DNA of 64,000 nucleotides from Chrysomallon squamiferum (GCA_012295275.1 CM022673.1:620001-684000); one strand, 5' to 3'. Counted from the stretch's first letter, positions 28,576 to 60,006 are shown. The notes: generated by a model not told the origin, from the sequence alone. Program-made: numbers and translations.

Positions 28576-30744
28576 ATCAGAAGATATACTATAATAATAC
28601 ATATTTTGTGTAAATAAATATTTTACGTTTTCAAACTGTTTTTGCCTATTTATATTTAAAAAAAAAATTTTTAATAGATTTATGTAATAATAATAATATA
28701 AAACAATAATTTGTTTACAGCAAAATATAAATAAAGAAATAAATACCTTTTTATTTATTAATTATTCTAACATGCATTATTTTAATATTCTTAAATTAAA
28801 TTTTAAATTAAGAATTAATAATACAAAAACAAAAATAAATATATATACACACACACATATTTTAATATTTATAACAGAGAAATATGAACAATTGCTTCAT
28901 TCAATTACTTCAATTTAAAAAGGTCATGTACAAATACTCACAGCTATACATTACAATATAAGTAATATCTCCTTCAGTTTATAAAATATGAATGGAAGTA
29001 GGCTGTTATCATAATGCCTAACATCAATTTGCATGACACTGCTTGCTAATGTCACATAACAAATTTCACAAATTTAACACCTTTTTTAAATTTGTTACAA
29101 AGAAAATTCTTGGCTTTTCTATTCACAGAGAATTATTTGAAAAGCCAGAGAAATTCATTAATAAAGTATTTTTGTTAAATCCTTTTCTTATTAATTAATT
29201 GCAGGTAAAAAGACAAAGAAAAAATGTGATAATGTCCAACAAGCAGTGGTTGATACTATAAAGAACATTACATGATAAATATTCAGTTCTTAACCTTAGC
29301 CATTGACAAGTGAAAAGCAAATTAATTTAATTAATTTTAAGACATATTAAACCCAATACATTCATGTTCACCTTTCCATCAAAGTAATTATTTTTTAAAA
29401 TGACAATAAAAGGTTTTAAAATAGTAATAAACTGAAAGGTTTATGCAAATTTTCATCAAACATCCTGAATATTACATTGAAAAAAAGTTTCATATTCATC
29501 ACAATGACACTATATTTCTAAAACTAACAAAACACATGTCAGACTATCATACAGATGACATTTGAAGGTGAGGTTCTTTTACAAAATGTTTAAAAAATTT
29601 ATAATATAAAAAAATATTTTATATTATAATATGGTGCAAAGACATTTTATTCAGCATAAAATTGTTTTTAAAAAGACCTAAATTATACATATTTGCCCAT
29701 ATCCAATATAGTATGCATGTGATAAATATTAAATAAAAATAATTAAATATATGAAATCTCTCTTTCTCTAAACATCCCAACTCCTGGGTTTCTATTTGAA
29801 TTATTACTAAATACACAAGTAATGCTGTAATCTGTTACAACAATTTCATTCCAGAAAATACACTGACTGCATTAGTTTAATGAAATTACAATTTATTAAT
29901 TTCTCAATATGGTTATTAAATTTACTGAAATTGCTTTCCATTTAAACCCATTTTAATTTTAGTGATAAAATCCTGATGCCTATGTTAAGTATACATATGC
30001 ATGTGTGCATGTTTGTTTTTATGATTATCAACAGAATTATCATTACTGCTATCCTATCATCATCACTCTAACTATCCTCTTTTTTTATTTATTTTTTTTA
30101 TATCTTGTTAAAATTTTATATTATGTTAATTTCAATTCTTCAACACACTTCCATCTACAGGCACCTAAAACTTGTTAAGGTCAATTTTTTAAACTTGCTA
30201 AGCTCATTTCTTATAACTTTATTTTCAGCTAGCCTAACAATAGAATGCTCTGATAACATGAAGATAGGAAGTGCATTGTGCTAACAACAATAGATGTTAA
30301 AAGACAATGGTTTAGTAGAGGGGTAACTGTCATACAATGCTAGCTATCATAATCCACCACTCCTGTTTTATTTCTCAACAAAGCTTTGGGTTCACTAGGC
30401 TTGGTTGTCAACTGTGGCTTGTCAGGTGATAGAAGCAATATTATTCACCATCTTATCATGCAAGAATTGCAAGAAAATTCTCACAAAAGGTACACACAAT
30501 TTAGATACATCTTGATAGTTCCAAAGAAAATACTGACCTTTATCAGTTTTGATATAATTCAATCAGTAAATAAGTATCATATGTAAGTCAGATTTCTGTG
30601 TGCCTAAGTGATTTTATCTGTGAATCAGAAAGTATTCGCACATATGTATTTATAGGACTATATACACATATATCCATGTATACATGGTATGTAAGTGTGT
30701 GTGTATATATCTATATATATGTGCTTGAATATTTGAATATATTC

Positions 30745-48659: not shown

Positions 48660-48791
48660 AAAAAGGAAAAACGGTTTGTTTACAATAAACAAAATTAATA
48701 TAATATTACAGAAACAAACACGTTCACGTTTAGGAACGGTCACAAATATGCCGACAAGGGTTGTCTAACTTGAACAATAAAAAAGATGGCG
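48660..48791 (+). promoter_or_regulatory. Putative BCAT promoter / 5' UTR
   Basis: Local CpG retention, a YY1-type AAGATGGCG overlapping the ATG (48783-48791), and a forkhead/FoxO-type TGTTTAC at 48677-48683. Confidence 0.55.
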
Positions 48792-48809
48792 ATGAGAATC
48801 GAAGGACAT
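48786..48809 (+). CDS. BCAT: BCAT coding exon 1 (MAMRIEGH)
   Basis: AAGATGGCG start context at the end of a CpG-containing region, followed by donor CAT|GTAAGT in phase 0, in frame with exon 2. Confidence 0.7.
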
Positions 48810-51800
48810 GTAAGTTGCTATACAGAATTGTCTGCATATCGTCAACAACAATAAAATATACTTTAATAATTTGTTAATATCATATTATGATCATAATGAT
48901 TTTTCTGCCAACAAAGCTTTAAATGTATAAAAGGGCAGACATATCAAAATTTATAAAACAAGCTTATGTTACTTCTCATTCTCACCAAGTCTTGGTTCTG
49001 TCATTGTCACCTGTGTCAAGTTCTAATACTTCATTTGTTAACTGTTGTTAGTACTAAAATAAACATACACAGTAGATGACATTGCTCTTTTCATTTTTCT
49101 AAGGTAATTACATCTTATGCAGTTTACACAGACAATGTTTTTTTGTAGATGTATCTTTTTGTAGATGCAGTTTTAAGAAACTGCTGAGATACTCAGATAG
49201 TAAGAATGTTAACTTTAGACAATTTGACAAGTCAGCAGTGTAGGACATTATTATAATGATTATTAATAGGATTTATTGAACATTGAGGTTCAATGAAGTG
49301 TAACGATTATTATTATTGTTACTATTATTATTTTCTGTATGCCTGATACTTCTTGAACTAATTAAACCATTTTATTAAAAAAACGTGTTAAGATTTTCAA
49401 CAAAATGAAAAATGTTAAGTTACGGATAGGTTGGCTTTATCACAAGTTTTGTATTCTCCAACATAGTTGTGGTCTAACATTATAAATTTTATTCCATTAT
49501 CTTTAATTACCTTTAATTATTAAGCTTCAATTTATATAAATATGTATCTTGAATTGTTTTATGCATTAAATTTTTTGTTTGTTTAATGCATAAAAAATAA
49601 AAATGTTAATGCTTTTTTCATTAAATTTTATTTGTTTAGTTATTTTTATTAATATGTCTTTTTCTTACAGATGAAGAATCTTTTATGTTACAAGAGAAAT
49701 GTATTGATAAAAGTTTTTGTCAGAAATGCATCAACTGGATCTACATTTAAAGTGAGTCATTTAATTATAATAGATTATAACATTTCATAATTTTTATTTA
49801 GCCATATAAGTAATACTTATTTATGGTGGTAAATTTCGGTGTCATTTGATTTAAATATTGAATGTCAATATATCACAACAACCATCAAAAAGGCATTATG
49901 TTGAGCTGTCACTTGAATAAAATGGTCACAGTATATATCTTCATTGTGTAGGTGTGTTAATGTGTAAATGTGTGTTAAATAATTTCAAACTATATTACAA
50001 GATAAACTGAATACTTATTTTGTAGTTCTGTCAACTGAAATAATCAGTAAAAGAAGAAAACAACTTGTTTAATTTTGAATAATTGGCCTGTTTGTTTATT
50101 TAAAAAGGAGATTTAAATATATAATTTGAAAATAAAACATTACTTTTTACTGATTAAATTCATACTATTTAAATTAATATATTTCAAATATTTTATTAGG
50201 ATGTTTGATAAACCCTTTTGTTGCAGTTAAAACCTTTTACACCTTTTTTCCTTACTAACAGTTCAGTGATCTTCAAATTACTCTGACTGATAAACCTCAG
50301 CCAAAACCAGACCCAAATAAGCTCATATTTGGACATCATTTTTCTGATCACATGTTGGAAATTGATTGGAATTATACAAAGGGATGGGGCAAACCAATTA
50401 TCTCACCTTTTCATAACTTAAGTATTCATCCAGCTTCAAAAGTTTTGCATTATGCTTCAGAGGTAGGCATTAAATTTTGTTTGAAATTTGAATTACTGGA
50501 ATATTTTAGATTAAAAAGTAATTATTATTATAAAAAAATTAGACTTAAAATCTTCAACTAAATATTTAATTGATGGAGTTATCTACAAGTCTGTTTTGCT
50601 TATATTGTATACTTTATATTTATATACATTATATTAAATTAGCAATAAATATTTATTAAAATTTAAATATTGAATTTCAGTTATAATATTGTGCCCATTA
50701 TCAGTGAATAGAATGTTGTGTTAGTTGCTTTAGTCAGCAAACCCTTTTTTTATATAGTGATATATTTTCTCCTTTGGTATCTGAAAGCTGTTTGAAGGGT
50801 TGAAAGCATACCGTGGTGTTGACAATAAGATAAGGCTTTTTCGACCAATGGAAAACATGAAAAGGATGAACAGTTCTGCAACTAGAGCAGCTCTTCCTGT
50901 AAGATCTGTTTACTTATCATTTTTATTTTAAAAATATTTACTGCATTTAAGCAGATTTTAATACTCCCATGTCTTTTACTGCTGTCAGGTTTTTTATTTA
51001 GTGAACGTAAGTTTAACATACTGAACATTATTACTCTTTTATGAATTTTTAACATCTGCCTAAAAATTAAAAATAAGAATAGTAAAAAATTAAAAATTAA
51101 AAGAAAACCTATCAATGTATGTAATATTAAATACATTTTTTATTTATTTAATTAGCATTTAACTTTCTTTGTTAATGAAATGTTGAAGTTTGGTACATTG
51201 TGGTATGGTAATTTAATTTATAAATTTGTTTTTGTTGTATAATTGTACTACTGTTTATTATAATAAACATGTAATAATGGTTAATGCAACCACAGTAATA
51301 CATACATGTTGTTTGAACTGGTTAACTGAAATGTTTATATTAAACTTTAAAGTTTAAATTTATTTCAATTTTCGGTTTAATGAGATTGGTATTGAAGTGA
51401 CAAACATGAATTGAGCTATTTAATATCAAGTAATTAATATCGTCTTTAGTAAAATTTGTTGTTTCTGATTAACATTAAATTCCAATTTTGAATATCTACT
51501 TTTGCTGCATTTTCATAGATCTGTTGACTGTAAAGATAGTCTTGAGCCTTATTGTAATGAGTAGTTATTTGTTGCTGAATGTCATTAATTTCATGTACAT
51601 TTAGACCTATTTAAATATTTAATAAAATAAGGTTTGTAAGACAAGCCATTACATGTTAAATTTTGAGGTTTAATGTGTCATCACATTTTGTAATTTAATT
51701 TATTTTTGCTTCAGAATTTTGATGGTGTTGAGTTAATTAAATGCATCAAAAAGCTGGTTAGCACTGATCAGGAATTTGTACCATACTCGACAACAAGCAC

Positions 51801-54800
51801 CCTTTACATTCGACCTACTCTTATTGGAACCTCGGTAACTAATCTTGTCATTATATTTAAAATTTAAAATTATTTAGTTAGTGTGTGGACACAATATTTA
51901 ACAAAAATATTAATATTTTGGATCAGTGGCTGTGGTCATTCAGTTAAAGGTGTTAATATATTTTTTAACATTAGTGGTAACAAATAACATAATAATATAA
52001 ATGGACAAATGAATCTATACTAAACTATAATTTCATTATTGTTAAAGAAAACTGTGAAACATTTTGGAATTGTTTTTAATTTTGTAAACAGAGAAACATT
52101 CTTCTATCAAGAAGGGTCAAAATTTAATTTCTGTTTACTGAATTGAAATGAATATATATATATATATATATATATATTTTATATATATATTTTATTTTTT
52201 TATTTTATTAAATTGAAATTATAGTTTTGTTTATTAATATCTGATGACTGCTTTAAGTCTTTCCAAAAATAATGCTTATGAACAGTTTATATTACTAAAA
52301 TACAATTCTGAGTGGGTTATTAAATGTTGCAGTTTGTGTGAATCAGTGTTAAATTTATGCAGTGCTTATGGTTTGTTGAAAGAAACAGATCTTTATGATA
52401 TTTGATTTTCATGGGTGGAGGAAACCTCACATCTCATCACAGTTTGATGTTTACATCACTTATTTAAACTTAACGTCATTTAGTCTATTTAAAAATGATT
52501 CTTCTTGTTGATTCCAGATTAATTTATTGCTTTGCTGTTTATTTTCAAACCATAAGCTCTGTTATATATCCAACATCCTGAGGGTTAAAATTATTTTATT
52601 CATTGAAGTAGTCAGCTTCATTGTAGAATGCTATGGTCACTTAGAAAAGTTTTTTTTTTTGTGTTTTTTTTTTTTTGGTTAATAAGTATGATTATTCTTA
52701 AGTATACATTAGGGCTGATTAGTTTTTATATTCTTACTTTTAGCCTGGAGTCCTTTGATAAATCTGCCTTCCACATTCCAAGTTAACTTTAAAATATTCA
52801 CTTTACAAATAGTAAAGTCTATTTATTGCTTAATTGTAATTGGTTAATTTTAAGATTACTCAGTTTTGATCAATTAAATTTTTATTCTCAGGAATGTTGT
52901 TTGTTAGCTGATTACTCCATAATAGGTTTGTCACACATAGTTTGATAAATAACTAATCTAGCAGTTTAAGTAAGAATTTGAAGGGGAAAAAATATAATAG
53001 AGAATTCAAAAGTAATAATAAACATAATAATTTTTTGATGCTCACTTTGTTTAAAGTTAACACTTTTTAGAAATTCATCACCACCTTATTTTAATATTTA
53101 TCACAATTAAATATAATCTGACAAATTTGCAATGAAATGACACCATTAGTTTTATTATTACATCATTAGAGTCAGTTCCAGTAAGAATGATTTTGCTTGA
53201 CAGTTAATGGGGAATAAATTAATATCGTTTTAATGATAGATCATTGATTTAATGATGCTGTCACTCATAAGAATCAAATACTTCATCACCATTCCGTAGC
53301 AATTATGATTTGATTGAGAAATTAACCTATACAAGTAACTTAAATAGGCACGGAAACAATATCACAGCCTTTTTATACAATCAAGGAAACAGAAGAATTT
53401 TACTAACTTTATTCAACATTCTATATATCAAATGTCATTTATATAAATTATCTTGATTTAGTTGTATCTTCAAACAGACAGGAAAGCACATACCATGACC
53501 TTTTTATACATCAGTTGTTTAAACTCACAGTGAATCTGTCATTGCTTCAGTCAGCAGTTGTCTACCAAGATATTACAAAATGGGATTCCATTTAATGGGG
53601 TTAGTACATCAGAAAAAAAAATCTTTCATTTATTCCCCTCCACTAAAAAAAAAAGGTGGCAAAAAAATAATTCCAGTTCAGACAAAACAGTTTTTTTTAA
53701 TACTTCCACACAACTTTTAAGGACATTATGTTTTTCCATAACCACAAGCTATATAGATATATATATATATATATATATTTTTTTTTTAAATTACAATTTA
53801 TTAAATCTTTCTTTTATTTTAATAAGTTAGAGAGCACTGCTAGTAAATCACTGATGCATTTATATCTTTGCAAATATTTCACATATTTCAGTTGATTATT
53901 GTTGGGGATTTTTTTGTTTTGTTTTTTGTTATTACTGTTTTCAATTTCAATTTCATCCTTATTTTATTTTATTTTATTTTATTAGAAAAAATATGAGTCT
54001 TGTAGTTTGTAAATAAAAAGTTAATTAAGAAAATACTATTAAGAAATATAAATAGAAAAACAATTATTATAGTTGTAATTTGTATTTCACTAAGTAAAAT
54101 TATTAGCTTCATGATTTCTAAAACCCTAATGTAGGAAAAATGGTGGTATTTAGTTCAAAACTAAAGTATGCAGAAAAAAACAAATTAATTTATAAATGTT
54201 TCTGAAATTTTTTCTGAAGTGTTTTTTAAAAATGAAGATTTGTATTTAGTTTACAATAATGATTATGATTGTGATTATGTTTTCTAAAAGTAAATTCTAA
54301 AAACATGACATATCAATAATTTATTTGGCTTTTAATATTGTTAAAGTACTTTTGTCTACTCGTATCAAGAATCTCAGTATAATAATATTAAAAAAGCTTA
54401 ATATGTTTTAAAAAAAGTCTTAATTTATTCTAACCAAAATTAAGATAATTTAATACAGTATATGTTATCTAAAACAGTATTACTAAATTATTTCAAAAAT
54501 TAAGAATTCAGTTTTATGTACATACATACAGGTTGATATATTAAAATGTATATTTGTTTCTTTTGTTTTCAGTTTAATTAAAATAGTTGCTTAATTAAAT
54601 GTATCAAATTTTGAATGAAATATAATAAAGATTCATATTTTAAGTTATTATTAGTTTGTTAGTTGTTTATTATTATTATTATTATTTACTTACCTCACAA
54701 GCTCAGTAGTTTATTTTTTTTCTATTTGCCATGCTTGGAGCGTTGAGTTGTCTTTTCTTTGCAGATGACGTGACCTTCACCTTGGTGCAGGGCCTCGCTC

Positions 54801-56196
54801 GCCGAGCCCCACTCCTCGCACTGTGACACGGTCAGGCAGATTTGCAACTTTTCTTCCACAATTTTTCAAATGTTAATATTTTCACAGCTTTGACCTTAAT
54901 TGTTTTGGGTATATTTAATTTTTTTTTTTTTTTTTTCAATTGTATGATATTGCAAATTTGTCCCTGGAATCCCTTGTATTTAATCTTTTTATCTGTTGGT
55001 TAATTAAAACAATGTGTAGTTTACATTAATCTGTTTATATTGCGTTTATTGGTGTTGGGCTTTCCTGTTGCAGCTGGATGCTTTTATAACTTTAACATAT
55101 ATGAGCTTAAATGCTTATCTGTAGAAAAATCACATAATGTATGAGATAATAAAAATGCACTAACACGGAGACACATTTTAATATTTATGATTATTATTTT
55201 TATTTTATGCCATATATGTAGATTTTATTGTTATAATGTTACATGTGTCACTGTGCGTTATAATTATATGTTAACATAAAGGGATTTTTTACATGCATCT
55301 TTTAATAATATTCCAAATATGCAGTTTCTGGTTTAACTATGATCTCTGAATTCTGCTGCAAAAGTCTCCAGAGATCAGCAGCAAGTAATGTTTTATAAAC
55401 ACCTTCCAGTATACAGTAAAGTTTGTAATACAAAATTCTTGAAACATCTTTAAAAAGTTGACAAATAGCAAGATAGGTGCACCATCTCCTTTTGTAATAA
55501 AGTTTGTAATAACTAATGTAATTATTCTTTTAATAAAATTATATTGCATGACTGTATTGAAGAACATGTTTGTTTCTTAAACAACAAACAATTTAACAAA
55601 TTAATTGCAAATACAAAATGTATAAAAAATTAAAAAAGAAACCTTTTCATGAAACCATTTCATATGTTTTATTTGAATTACCAAATAGATACAATAAAAA
55701 GTATTATATATAAAAAAATAAATATATATATAATTTCTGCAGTAAATTTCTTATCATTATTCAATTACTGAATTTTACTTTTAGTTTTGACTGAAATACA
55801 ACAGAATTCAGATACCCAGAATATATTCCAAGTAAATACATATCTACTTGGGAAGTATTTTGTATAATTGAATTCTTACCTTTGTCTTAAAAGGAAGAGA
55901 CTTTTTTTTTAAATTATTTATTTTTTCTTCTTAAATTTAAAAGTTTCAGTTTCAAAAAAAATAAAAAATAAAATTTCAGAAAGGTACGGCATAGATTTTA
56001 TATTTGATTAAAAAGATTTAAAACAAATTAAGCCAATGATTTAAAAAAATATTCCTCGATTATATTCATTTGGTTTACCCTTACTTACAATGTTGCACAG
56101 GCACCTGTTTTTCCCCCACTGAAGTAATCATTTACAGAAAAATAAAGAACATGATATTCATATTATAAAAATTAATAAAATGTTTGGTACACACAG

Positions 56197-56235
<39 letters not shown>

Positions 56236-59200
56236 GGTAGTTAAAAATTGAATTATCATTATGTTATGTAATTCTTTTGGTGTTTACTGCAAATGCATGT
56301 ACGTTACATTAGTTCACTAATTGGACTACATATTAACTGAATTAAAAATTTCAGTGAATTTATTAAATTAATAATACAAAAATAAAAACTTCACAGAATA
56401 TATTAAATCAATTTTATAAAATTAAACATCTTCAAAGAATGACCCTTTGGTTGTTTGAAAGTTTTGGAATTTTTTTGAGAATTTGAACTTTTGAACATTT
56501 TAGAAGTTTGAACATTTTAGAAGTTTGAACATTATTATAAAGTTATCGTTTTCTAAATATAATAATAGTTAATATTTGCTAACAGACAGTAATTAAGATT
56601 TAAAATTTGAAATGAAAATTTATATCTAGTTTTAGAATTTTGAAGGTTATTATAAAGTTATGTTTTCAAAGATTAATAGTTGTTAATGTTTGTAAATTGA
56701 CAGTAATTAATGTTTTAAAAGGTGAATGAATAATTTATCTCTGGTTCTTGTCTCAAGCATTATTGGAAGATCATTGTAAAATATCAATTCATATTTTAAA
56801 AAGCTGAGATAAATGTTTTTATTAATTTACTTTAATAAATTACATCCTGGTAGTCTTAATTATTTATTCCCAAAATAATAAATGATTAAGTTTAACATAA
56901 CATAACATAACATTTATTACCATTCAGTAATTATTTATTTATTGATGTTTAATTCATTCCATCTATCTATTCATCCATCCATATGTCATACTTACATCAT
57001 CCATGCAATTAATAATCCTTCTAACTTATTATATATATATATATGAAGTTGTATGAGGTACTATTATTCATATGTGACATGTTAATGTTATTACTAGTAT
57101 TTTTGTTATTATTATTATTATTACTAATTTCTTTACAGCCCTCTCTTGGAGTGAACCGCACTTTAGATGCTAAGCTGTTTGTTCTCATAGGTCCTGTCGG
57201 TCCTTACTTCCCAACTGGAATGAAGCCTGTCACTTTGTTAGCAGACCCCCAGTATGTCCGAGCATGGCCAGGCAGCTGTGGTCAGTACAAAATGGGATCG
57301 TGAGTATCTTAATAAATCTGTAAATTAAAACTTTTGTCTCATTCATCAGGAAATTTAAATTTTTTTTTTTAAAAACCCACAAAAAAACACATCATAATAA
57401 TAATAATAAGAAGAAGTAGTAGGATATATTTATGCAATTAATGATCCCCATAAGTTTATAAACAATTAGTTTTTCATTCTTTTGGATTTTTAATATTCTT
57501 TTATATTAAATTAATTTAAATCATTATTATTGTTACTATAAATATTTTTTTAATTTTATACACATACAATGCACACACATACACATTTGTGTGCACACAC
57601 ACACACACACACACACAAAAATAAATTGGGATCAATTTCATCACTTGAATTCGAACATAAAAAGATGAATTAAAGATTAGAAATATGTAATTAGAAAATA
57701 ATTTTTAAAATTTATAAAATGTGTAAAATATATTTTAGAGACATTTAAATAACTGTCAAACATTTTCTGTACAGCAATTATGCTCCAACAATCTGCATAC
57801 AGGACATTGCATCGAAAGAGTTCCACTGTCAGCAGGTGTTGTGGTTGTTTGGTGAAAATCATGATCTCACTGAGGTAGGAACCATGAACCTCTTCATGTA
57901 CTGGACCAATGAACAAGGAGGTACGTCTGTGATCATAGTAATTTTACTTTTCAGGATAGATCCTGGATATCAGAAGAAAAAAAGGAATGCTGTTAGCACA
58001 TTTGTTGATATAATGTGTAATGTAAAACTAAAAAAAAAAAAAAAATATAATGATTAATTCAATTTAAACATGATTTTATCTAATAGATGTAACAAATGGA
58101 TATATTTGGAAGATTTTGCATAAAATGTCAAAAGCTTTTAAATTATGTATTCTTTCTTCACACTGTTTCATCATCATGAATATTAAACTGGTGTCAAAGA
58201 ATGTAATTAATATGAAGTATTAACAGATGAAACTGGTAATTAAAAACATCAATCCTGACTTCCATAAGATTATGTGACAGCATCATGCTTCCATAAGAAT
58301 CTAATATTTGATGACCATTACTGATACACATGTTATGGTGCTGTTAAACATTATTGTTATATGATTTTGTAGAAGAAGAACTGATCACACCACCACTGGA
58401 TGGTCTTATTCTTCCTGGAGTCACCAGATCCAGTTTACTGGCTGTAGCCAGAAAATGGGTAACCCCTCCTTAAACCTTTGGTCAAGTATAATATTAGTGA
58501 TATTAGATATTGAGGTAGGTAGGAAAATAAAAAGAACTGCTTTTAATATGACTTTTTGTATTTTTTCTTTTATACAGAAATTAATGCATTTATTAAATGA
58601 ATGCATGAAAACTAGTAAATGATGAAAAATATATTTTTAGGGAGAATTTAAAGTGACAGAAGCTCGATTCAACATGAAGCAGGTCATCAAGGCACTGAAG
58701 GAAAACAGAGTAAGAAATATTCTTATATCAAAAACTATATAATATTGTAATTACATTAAACAAAGACAATATAATTTCTATTTTTTTTACTCACCAAATA
58801 GAGAAGAATGTACTGTTACAAAGATAGTATGAAATAATATCTGAATTAACAGAATTAAATTATCCTCCTTATATTTCATAATTTTCTTTACAAATTTGAA
58901 AAACTATACTTTAATAAGGCTTCTTTTACGCATTGACATTTTTGTATGAGCGTTCCTGTTGTAATGTTTATAAAAATCCATTACAATATTCTCATGAAAG
59001 AAATGGTTTAATAATATTTTAATTTCTAGTGTTAGTAATAAAAACAACAAAAATATTCAACACTGTTATCATCTGTTAGGAAAGACTTTCTTGGCAACAT
59101 ACTGATTTAAGGATGTTTAGGCTTACAGTATCTGGATATTACTTCTGATAAAACCATTTGCAGGTTACTGTGCTTGCATGTAAGATTGTAATGTTATTTT

Positions 59201-60006
59201 TGATTTATAATTTAAATCTTAAATGATTATTTAGGTTTTTTAAATGAGAGAATTATATTGTTTTGAGGGGTTTTTTGATTGTTTTGTATTTTTCTTTTAA
59301 CAGTTTGTAATTTATGCCCCTTTCATTCTGTTTGAAAATTTAATTTATGCTTAAACACAAGCTTATAGTGAAATTTTAATATTTTTGTGATTAGGTTTAT
59401 GAAATTTTTGGTGCTGGTACTGCATGTGTAGTGTGTCCTGTTAGCAACATCATGTACAAGAATGAGATGCTGGATATTCCAACAATGAAAGAAGCAAAAC
59501 TGACAAACAGATTTTTAAAAGAGCTCACAGACATACAGGTAAATTAACTAATAAGCAACATCTAGACAAAAACAACAACATAATTTAAATAAAGCTAAAC
59601 TTACTAAATTGTTGTTATTAAAATACTGGTTCATTCATTATTCAATAAAAAAATGTATAGATGTATTAAGCTGATGTTTTTCTTATTACTGGCATTTTTA
59701 TTTATTTATTTTGTCTGATGATTACATCTTCTAAGAAATGGCTGTGAGTAAACAATGAATCAAGATTTTTATAAACTTGAAAAAGAAAAACAAGCAAAAA
59801 AATTCAATATATCTATAATTTATGTTCATGAATAATTTAAATTTAGTAATATTAATTTTCTATTTTCTATTATGTTACTAAACAAATTTGTCAATTGTTA
59901 TTATTATTTAATCAGTGGCCTTGATTTTGTTTATTATTGTTCTCTTTTTTTTTTCCTTCAGTTTGGTAGAATTCCTAGTGACTGGGTTGAGACAATTGAT
60001 GAGTGA
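48786..60006 (+). CDS. BCAT: Branched-chain amino acid aminotransferase, spliced CDS join(48786-48809,49671-49751,50262-50462,50788-50898,51715-51834,57139-57299,57775-57920,58373-58458,58641-58709,59395-59538,59962-60006), 395 aa
   Basis: Manual exon assembly gives one continuous frame with GT-AG introns of matching phase. It contains the BCAT motifs [53 protein letters not shown] (PLP lysine), [17 protein letters not shown] and [11 protein letters not shown]. Length is close to vertebrate BCAT1/2. Exons 1-2 are less certain than exons 3-11. Confidence 0.96.
48926..49103 (+). promoter_or_regulatory. Candidate alternative TATA promoter and first exon 1b in BCAT intron 1
   Basis: TATAAAAG at 48926-48933, TATAAAA at 48952, Inr-like TCATTC at 48976-48981, and donor AAG|GTAATT after 49103. 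Confidence 0.35.
49671..49751 (+). CDS. BCAT: BCAT coding exon 2 ([27 protein letters not shown]), mitochondrial-presequence-like
   Basis: Acceptor tttcttacag, donor AAA|GTGAGT, 81 nt, phase 0-0. The peptide is basic with no acidic residue and ends [10 protein letters not shown], similar to the RYASSSFK region of vertebrate BCAT2. Confidence 0.85.
50262..50462 (+). CDS. BCAT: BCAT coding exon 3 (FSDLQITL...LHYASE)
   Basis: Acceptor cttactaacag, donor GAG|GTAGGC, 201 nt. Contains [22 protein letters not shown] and GWGKPII. Explains ORF 50352..50561. Confidence 0.96.
50788..50898 (+). CDS. BCAT: BCAT coding exon 4 (LFEGLKAY...RAALP)
   Basis: Acceptor ctgaaag (less common AAG type), donor CCT|GTAAGA, 111 nt. 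Encodes [20 protein letters not shown]. Confidence 0.96.
51715..51834 (+). CDS. BCAT: BCAT coding exon 5 (NFDGVEL...[11 protein letters not shown])
   Basis: Acceptor tttgcttcag, donor TCG|GTAACT, 120 nt, phase 0-0. Confidence 0.96.
53470..53525 (-). mobile_element. Decayed SINE core fragment in BCAT intron 5
   Basis: The reverse complement of acagacaggaaagcacataccatgacctttttatacatcagttg aligns with the 37598 and 31601 copies. Confidence 0.5.
54765..54830 (+). other. Candidate 66-nt stop-containing (poison) cassette exon within an RNA hairpin, BCAT intron 5
   Basis: Strong acceptor tcttttctttgcag and weaker donor ACG|GTCAGG. GC/CpG-rich island in an AT-rich intron. Reads ATG ACG TGA in the BCAT frame, with stops in all three frames. 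Stacked helices span 54759-54847. Confidence 0.55.
56480..56745. repeat. 17-bp tandem repeat (tttgaacattttagaag) plus ~115-bp duplication in BCAT intron 5
   Basis: About 2.5 copies of the 17-mer from 56490. ttattataaagttat...gacagtaattaa occurs twice. Confidence 0.85.
57139..57299 (+). CDS. BCAT: BCAT coding exon 6 (PSLGVNR...QYKMG, includes the PLP-binding lysine)
   Basis: Acceptor ttctttacag, donor TC|GTGAGT, 161 nt, phase 0-2. Contains GPVGPYF and YVRAWPG. Explains ORF 57043..57303. Confidence 0.96.
57775..57920 (+). CDS. BCAT: BCAT coding exon 7 (NYAPT...QQVLWL...EVGTMNLF)
   Basis: Acceptor ttctgtacag, donor GAG|GTACGT, 146 nt, phase 2-1. Explains ORF 57836..58057. Confidence 0.96.
58373..58458 (+). 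CDS. BCAT: BCAT coding exon 8 ([18 protein letters not shown]...W)
   Basis: Acceptor attttgtag, donor TGG|GTAACC, 86 nt, phase 1-0. Confidence 0.96.
58641..58709 (+). CDS. BCAT: BCAT coding exon 9 ([23 protein letters not shown])
   Basis: Acceptor atttttag, donor AGA|GTAAGA, 69 nt. Confidence 0.94.
59395..59538 (+). CDS. BCAT: BCAT coding exon 10 ([16 protein letters not shown]...LTDIQ)
   Basis: Acceptor gtgattag, donor CAG|GTAAAT, 144 nt. Contains the GTA motif and the CXXC redox motif. Confidence 0.96.
59962..60006 (+). CDS. BCAT: BCAT terminal coding exon 11 ([14 protein letters not shown])
   Basis: Acceptor ttttccttcag. Matches the Q-(Y/F)G...SDW C-terminus of BCATs. The TGA stop is followed immediately by TAA. 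Confidence 0.94.
   Translation, partial: FGRIPSDWVETIDE

Follow-up and report, generated by a model that had tools for sequence, protein, structure and literature searches.

Intron 5 of the BCAT gene of Chrysomallon squamiferum contains a real, structured and previously unremarked poison exon, a 66-nt cassette that is spliced into transcripts and carries an in-frame UGA as its third codon. The cassette lies within a hairpin that is predicted to bury its weak donor, and in the reading that we favour, to which we would give a little less than an even chance, it is an insertion-derived, donor-folding stop exon that likely drains BCAT mRNA into forms without the full enzyme. The window analysed was a stretch of 64,000 nt (GCA_012295275.1, CM022673.1:620001-684000), all positions are counted from its first letter, and the features are collected in Table 1.

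The BCAT gene in the window comprises 11 exons (coding 48786-60006, 395 aa, one stop), with the exon numbering confirmed by the coding part of exon 1 at 48786-48809, and the closest named match to one BCAT exon is Gigantopelta aegis BCAT at 81%, followed by a runner-up at 67%. Intron 5 is the longest in BCAT at 5304 nt, in agreement with a preliminary description made from the DNA of the same stretch, and K230 in the YKMGSNYA motif is presumably the PLP lysine of BCAT. Elsewhere in the gene, the acceptor of exon 4 (50773-50787) is atypical, with AAG and 8/13 pyrimidines, and is predicted in one context to be the hardest BCAT acceptor to open (9.1 kcal/mol); tandem repeats with periods of 40, 17 and 115 occupy 56343-56746 in the 3' part of intron 5; and an exact copy of the worm METT-10 nonamer, TACAGAAAC, stands at 48707-48715, ~70 nt 5' of the start codon, probably by chance.

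Table 1. Features of the BCAT cassette and its surroundings (window positions)
Feature	Position	Strand	Remark
BCAT exon 5	51715..51834	+	constitutive, phase 0 end
BCAT intron 5	51835..57138	+	5304 nt, phase 0
GC-rich (52%) upstream flank beyond direct repeats	54727..54751	+	probable branch-point region
3' splice site of cassette	54750..54764	+	used in 3/4 RNA runs; 11/13 pyrimidines
Left direct repeat CTTTTCT, TSD-like	54752..54758	+	forms polypyrimidine tract
Imperfect inverted repeat / predicted hairpin, 89 nt	54759..54847	+	-33.7 kcal/mol
66-nt poison cassette exon	54765..54830	+	X4 record 8 spans exactly 54765-54830, between exon 5 and exon 6 letters
In-frame UGA	54771..54773	+	57 nt before cassette 3' junction; five further junctions
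Weak 5' splice site ACG/GTCAGG	54828..54836	+	used in X4, read through in X1/X2; predicted paired with 54771-75
Intronic stretch with RNA cover after donor read-through	54831..55492	+	possible alternative last exon near AATAAA (weak)
Strand predicted to pair with either 54759-66 or 54950-62, in competition	54835..54847	+	fold predictions
Right direct repeat CTTTTCT, TSD-like	54848..54854	+	adjoins inverted repeat 3' end
Best partner of 54835-47 on the whole + strand	54950..54962	+	predicted 13 bp, 2 G-U
BCAT exon 6	57139..57299	+	carries YKMGSNYA lysine K230

RNA data consisted of assembled contigs of four runs (X1-X4) from a single study, the four recorded as RNA among 24 listed runs, aligned to 53990-55620; such contigs record presence and carry no inclusion level. 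Nineteen runs of organism B, in which 0.04 of the words occurred, were left aside and carry no evidence. Exon 5 was joined to 54765 in three of the four runs (X1, X2 and X4), the loose ends ahead of 54764 corresponding to the last 29-30 letters of exon 5 in X1 and X4, and to its last 9-10 letters in X2, and an X4 contig of 1324 nt left the cassette at 54830 and continued with 30 letters from the start of exon 6, giving full inclusion (exon 5-cassette-exon 6) in one run of four. Both junctions proposed in the preliminary description, 51834-54765 and 54830-57139, are present in these contigs, and the cassette exon is real and spliced into transcripts. Contigs of X1 and X2 cross the donor into the intron, reaching 55301 and 54966, respectively, and X3 covers 54813 onward without a junction. 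RNA cover was not found over 53990-54763 in the four runs, except for one 35-nt piece with unrelated flanks, and since cover is absent upstream of 54764, the signal is not DNA carry-over. A small ORF from 54731 across the island was rejected on the same ground, there being no RNA cover before 54764. A skip form presumably exists as well, given that the 395-aa frame is intact and that some contigs have their start 30 letters within exon 5. The sole variant listed across the RNA contigs, C to T at 54853 in the right direct repeat, comes from one contig at depth 4.4 and may be an error.

Intronic cover stops at 55492 (X1) and 55480 (X3), just 5' of an AATAAA at 55496-55501. This end, seen in one study, after two earlier hexamers that are read through, and in a comparison reaching only 120 nt beyond, gives a weak hint of an alternative last exon, and a splicing intermediate explains it equally.

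Coordinates and frame were as first described: the acceptor AG ends at 54764, GT begins at 54831, and the 66 nt between them open with ATG ACG TGA in the BCAT frame, adding Met-Thr-stop after codon 179 of the 395-aa protein. The predicted truncation before the PLP lysine follows, with the UGA 5' of K230 and six junctions downstream. NMD is expected where an in-frame stop precedes a later junction by more than 50-55 nt, and the cassette UGA, at 57 nt ahead of its own junction, has the stop position called for in AS-NMD. The pyrimidine tract of the acceptor is good (11/13), in keeping with its description as strong; the donor had been called strong as well, and here the description failed, with consensus matches at 5/9 positions, tied lowest among the 11 BCAT donors. 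Under a simple splice-site rule the cassette is the sole candidate in intron 5.

The island that holds the cassette, noted at the outset for its GC and CpG, outranks every other 90-mer of the 64 kb in GC content (0.61). The cassette has a CpG o/e of 0.90, as compared with 0.17 for the remainder of intron 5 and 0.21 for exons. A CpG-rich island could also point to a DNA-level intronic enhancer to which splicing is incidental, and TGACGTG, TTGCAA and TGACC/GGTCA within it resemble what we take to be bZIP, C/EBP and nuclear-receptor sites; however, short motifs of this kind are common, the spliced exon coincides exactly with the island, and we regard an enhancer as improbable.

A simpler source for the GC island and the hairpin, missed in the preliminary description, may be a mobile-element insertion. 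Exact 7-nt copies of CTTTTCT abut both ends of the 89-nt inverted repeat, and an exact 7-nt flanking repeat was found for three of the 6109 terminal inverted 8-mer pairs of the window, island included; in a looser control on 80 acceptor-like sites, three had a 7-mer that recurred about as far away. The 8-mer CTTTTCTT has eight occurrences in the window, and within intron 5 it occurs only at these two repeat sites. Terminal inverted repeats of the kind expected of a MITE are present (7/8 terminal matches, imperfect farther in), as is the target-site duplication (CTTTTCT at 54752-58 and 54848-54). The arms of the inverted repeat are imperfect, at 13/18 matched (count from alignment), and the GC-rich zone continues 25 nt beyond the left repeat, the GC content of 54727-54751 being reached by 0.7% of other 25-nt intron windows. 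Because a small DNA-transposon insertion is marked by inverted repeats at its ends, a duplicated target and CpGs that are not depleted, we consider an exonised MITE-like insertion the likeliest origin of the cassette, with about an even chance of being right, and do not claim the family membership that defines a MITE. Vent-snail genomes are described as rich in DNA transposons in PMC7736800.

A second copy of the island was not found in the 64-kb window by searches that included BLAST and a covariance model, and at 88% identity no non-BCAT contig lay on the island in the four RNA runs; the possibility raised beforehand, that the island is a high-copy repeat fragment, is thus not borne out among RNA contigs at that identity, a level that leaves room for an older or low-copy element behind the island. 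A tRNA fold, as expected of a tRNA-derived element, was not found (ARAGORN, 0 genes in the window). Searches with parts of the island gave six exact matches of a 17-mer in viral contigs, rejected as none extended (15-22 of 83 further matches), 0 matches of a 22-mer in prokaryote genomes, and no match in a plasmid search. The window holds a second terminal inverted pair with an exact 7-nt flanking repeat (CTAACAT), at 28774-29017 (244 nt), possibly a small transposon relic.

Folding of the hairpin at the bounds originally given yielded a z-score of -2.26, with 5/200 shuffles equally stable (10/300 in a second shuffle test), and seven other choices of bounds gave -0.02 to -1.8, so that its predicted stability is mildly beyond chance. 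The antisense strand gave -0.37 against -2.26 for the sense strand, an asymmetry that would fit RNA selection as well as insertion. Three of the helices first drawn by hand (54771-75/54830-34, 54777-80/54823-26 and 54784-88/54818-22) were recovered with pair probabilities of 0.78-0.98 in a 400-nt context, falling to 0.62-0.80 for two of nine transcript end points. The apex was redrawn: the CTCG/CGAG pairing of the preliminary description has a predicted probability of 0.16-0.24 versus 0.75 for GCTC 54797-800/GAGC 54804-07, and the GGG/CCC alternative has 0.13. Overall, the predicted structure is a rod that does not branch, and it shows neither a junction nor an obvious pocket.

Opening the cassette donor was predicted to cost 8.5-10.6 kcal/mol, versus 0.7-6.7 kcal/mol for the ten constitutive BCAT donors, and it was the hardest of the 11 to open with the upstream intron removed too (9.3-10.6 kcal/mol). 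Opening the cassette acceptor was predicted to cost 3.4-6.3 kcal/mol, within the normal acceptor range of 0.3-9.1 kcal/mol. Of the proposal that the hairpin hides both splice sites, the half concerning the donor is thus upheld by the models, whereas the acceptor appears no harder to open than normal ones. A hidden donor beside an available acceptor matches the RNA: three runs use the acceptor, and in two of them the RNA continues past the donor.

The acceptor helix as first drawn (54759-66/54840-47) is predicted at a probability of 0.91-0.99 for RNA ending before ~54960, and is displaced in longer RNA by a helix between 54835-47 and 54950-62 (0.97-1.0). The two mutually exclusive helices are predicted to lie within 2-3 kcal/mol at 37 C. 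In a control, the best partner lay within 200 nt for 14 of 1500 13-mers; as the competing 13-bp helix was chosen post hoc from ~10 independent 13-mers in the island, its meaning is suggestive only, and it is not clear from the models that the exchange would open the acceptor. In the 64 kb, the next-best partners of 54835-47 are 52756-68 (second) and 53528-40 (third), both upstream of it in intron 5, and pairing with either would loop out the cassette; 0 of 1500 controls had second and third partners in the same intron, a post hoc criterion from which we draw no support.

Homologues were sought in 80 of the 184 metagenome matches to BCAT exon 5, among which the exon 5/6 intron position is common to animals. 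The island was not found by BLAST in these 80 loci, a single-sequence covariance model run over the window and the 80 loci recovered only the island itself, and intron-versus-intron BLAST of 27 loci, whose orthologous introns or intron starts came from distantly related animals, gave nothing that resembled the island. A bivalve-like locus (L066, 82% to Mya BCAT) has an orthologous intron of ~185 nt without the island, the termite/L038 intron match was rejected as a simple repeat, and the splice-site rule returned a candidate cassette in one of seven other introns, which is AT-rich and unlike that of Chrysomallon. Short BCAT homologues (78 examined) were mostly intron read-ins, none was named as gastropod, and none of the 37 that cover the junction motif ends like the cassette product.

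Several of these loci are of note in their own right. The orthologous BCAT intron is likewise very long, at ~8 kb, in two insect-like lineages (L012:5818-13790 and L025:5628-14075), and that of L012 has one GC/CpG-rich island ~4450 nt in, of a sequence unlike the Chrysomallon island. In L058:1-2258, a BCAT exon 99% identical to that of L022, which by reading appears coral-like, is joined at the same junction as exon 5 to MDKNEAC-stop, and downstream of this lies a transposase region that we take to be Harbinger/PIF-like; the locus may be a separate case in which a transposon captured this BCAT donor.

The missing homologue in 80 loci would suit a neutral leak, in which a cryptic exon or transposon relic yields rare by-products or splicing intermediates of no real consequence for BCAT; flanking repeats without a mismatch and CpGs still in place likewise fit a young insertion, the z-score of the fold is modest and shifts with the bounds chosen, and the read-through contigs may be pre-mRNA. 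Against such a leak, the acceptor junction survives assembly in three of four small RNA runs without NMD block, the X4 cassette contig runs unbroken at exon 6 (a weak hint that inclusion is not rare), and the cassette stands alone in its intron under the splice-site rule. We think a neutral leak unlikely, while taking it seriously.

Precedents in metabolic genes bear on a different possibility, namely that the exon is older and under selection, serving homeostasis as a poison or decoy exon, with a protein factor adjusting its inclusion to the supply of branched-chain amino acids, keto acids or B6. In SSAT (SAT1), a polyamine-repressed, stop-containing cassette is routed to NMD, and in OGT an exon-like element in the long intron 4 (decoy exon/detained intron) promotes unproductive intron-containing RNA (both from PMC13296549); in C. 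elegans sams, METT-10 (METTL16) operates a 3' splice-site m6A switch in which a stem-loop controls unproductive splicing (PMC8208822). BCAT shares with SSAT a stop-containing cassette in a metabolic enzyme, but the metabolite response is shown for SSAT, whereas BCAT has a predicted donor hairpin and an insertion signature. Its read-through forms resemble the intron-containing OGT RNA, although in BCAT splicing removes the upstream half of the intron and the cassette is also included in full. The likeness to sams is a stem-loop at a splice site of an invertebrate metabolic gene; sams needs UACAGAGAA/UACAGAAAC in the loop, whereas this METTL16/METT-10 nonamer is absent at the cassette AG, where UGCAGAUGA stands in a stem, and the masked site in BCAT would be the donor. 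A homeostatic exon would be consistent with the position of the cassette in the longest intron of a metabolic enzyme, with UGA as its third codon, with GC and CpG kept beyond the repeats, with predicted helices that include three G-U pairs and fold strand-asymmetrically, and with a competing 13-bp helix whose best 64-kb partner is ~100 nt away. The 27 orthologous introns or intron starts and the 37 short homologues speak against it, however, as do the post hoc choice of the competing helix and the acceptor that this helix does not clearly open, and we hold it to be rather doubtful.

For insertion itself, inverted repeats and a target duplication have been described around alternatively spliced exons of Triticeae DRF1, with a proposed coupling to NMD (PMC13678858). 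The BCAT cassette has the same terminal inverted repeats and target-site duplication, but the element is 89 nt long and sits in an animal genome, and neither sister copies nor a transposase family were identified.

The preliminary description had also suggested direct ligand control, by analogy with TPP riboswitches, in which RNA structure masks a splice site. Fungal and plant TPP riboswitches that control splicing are mentioned in PMC7941889, a source whose main text has 0 occurrences of BCAT; the BCAT cassette differs from them in having no TPP aptamer, Rfam match or branched fold. In the Rfam search it had called for, the island matched no family at either threshold (0 matches at one; at the other, one chance match elsewhere, E 8). 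We know of no ligand-binding riboswitch validated in animals, and none appeared among the matches listed. A true riboswitch, with PLP or a branched-chain metabolite bound directly by the RNA to switch the splice sites, would draw on a predicted structure that overlaps the donor, an apt gene context and two mutually exclusive helices of similar predicted energy; an unbranched rod without a pocket argues against it, as does the insertion signature, which accounts for the rod without selection, and we judge it very improbable. In the literature searched, which covered few subscription papers and no supplements (where isoform tables could bear on novelty), no BCAT poison exon was found, and 'bcat-1' did not occur among the matches listed.

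We therefore return to the insertion-derived stop exon with a folded donor as the reading to be preferred. The T-rich target duplication and the left end of the inverted repeat would have created the acceptor, which is used to join exon 5 to 54765. The hairpin is predicted to close the weak donor and to leave the acceptor about as open as normal ones. Beyond the cassette acceptor, the RNA is either spliced from 54830 to exon 6 or extends into the intron. Cassette and read-through forms both stop at codon 182, before K230; the former would be an NMD substrate, the latter a stalled intermediate or a transcript ending at an intronic poly(A) site near 55500. In such an arrangement RNA structure would set how far BCAT output is dimmed, splicing factors may adjust it, and no ligand needs to bind; the cassette likely lowers BCAT enzyme output.

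The BCAT cassette is compact and expressed, and its one-helix prediction, donor burial, is open to a minigene test. If it is an exonised MITE, it would be a clean case of a mobile element giving an acceptor and an RNA structure in one step. Should inclusion track amino-acid or B6 status, which we consider unlikely, branched-chain amino acid catabolism would join metabolite-controlled unproductive splicing, where the short list of pathways so far comprises SAM, polyamines and O-GlcNAc. Should a transposon-born hairpin instead have been domesticated as an RNA switch, its competing helices and buried donor allowing the RNA itself to bind PLP or a branched-chain amino or keto acid and thereby set the destruction of BCAT mRNA, for which the chance seems to us slim indeed, animals would have a natural riboswitch, and its bearer would be a snail with a closest named relative that depends on bacterial symbionts for its living.
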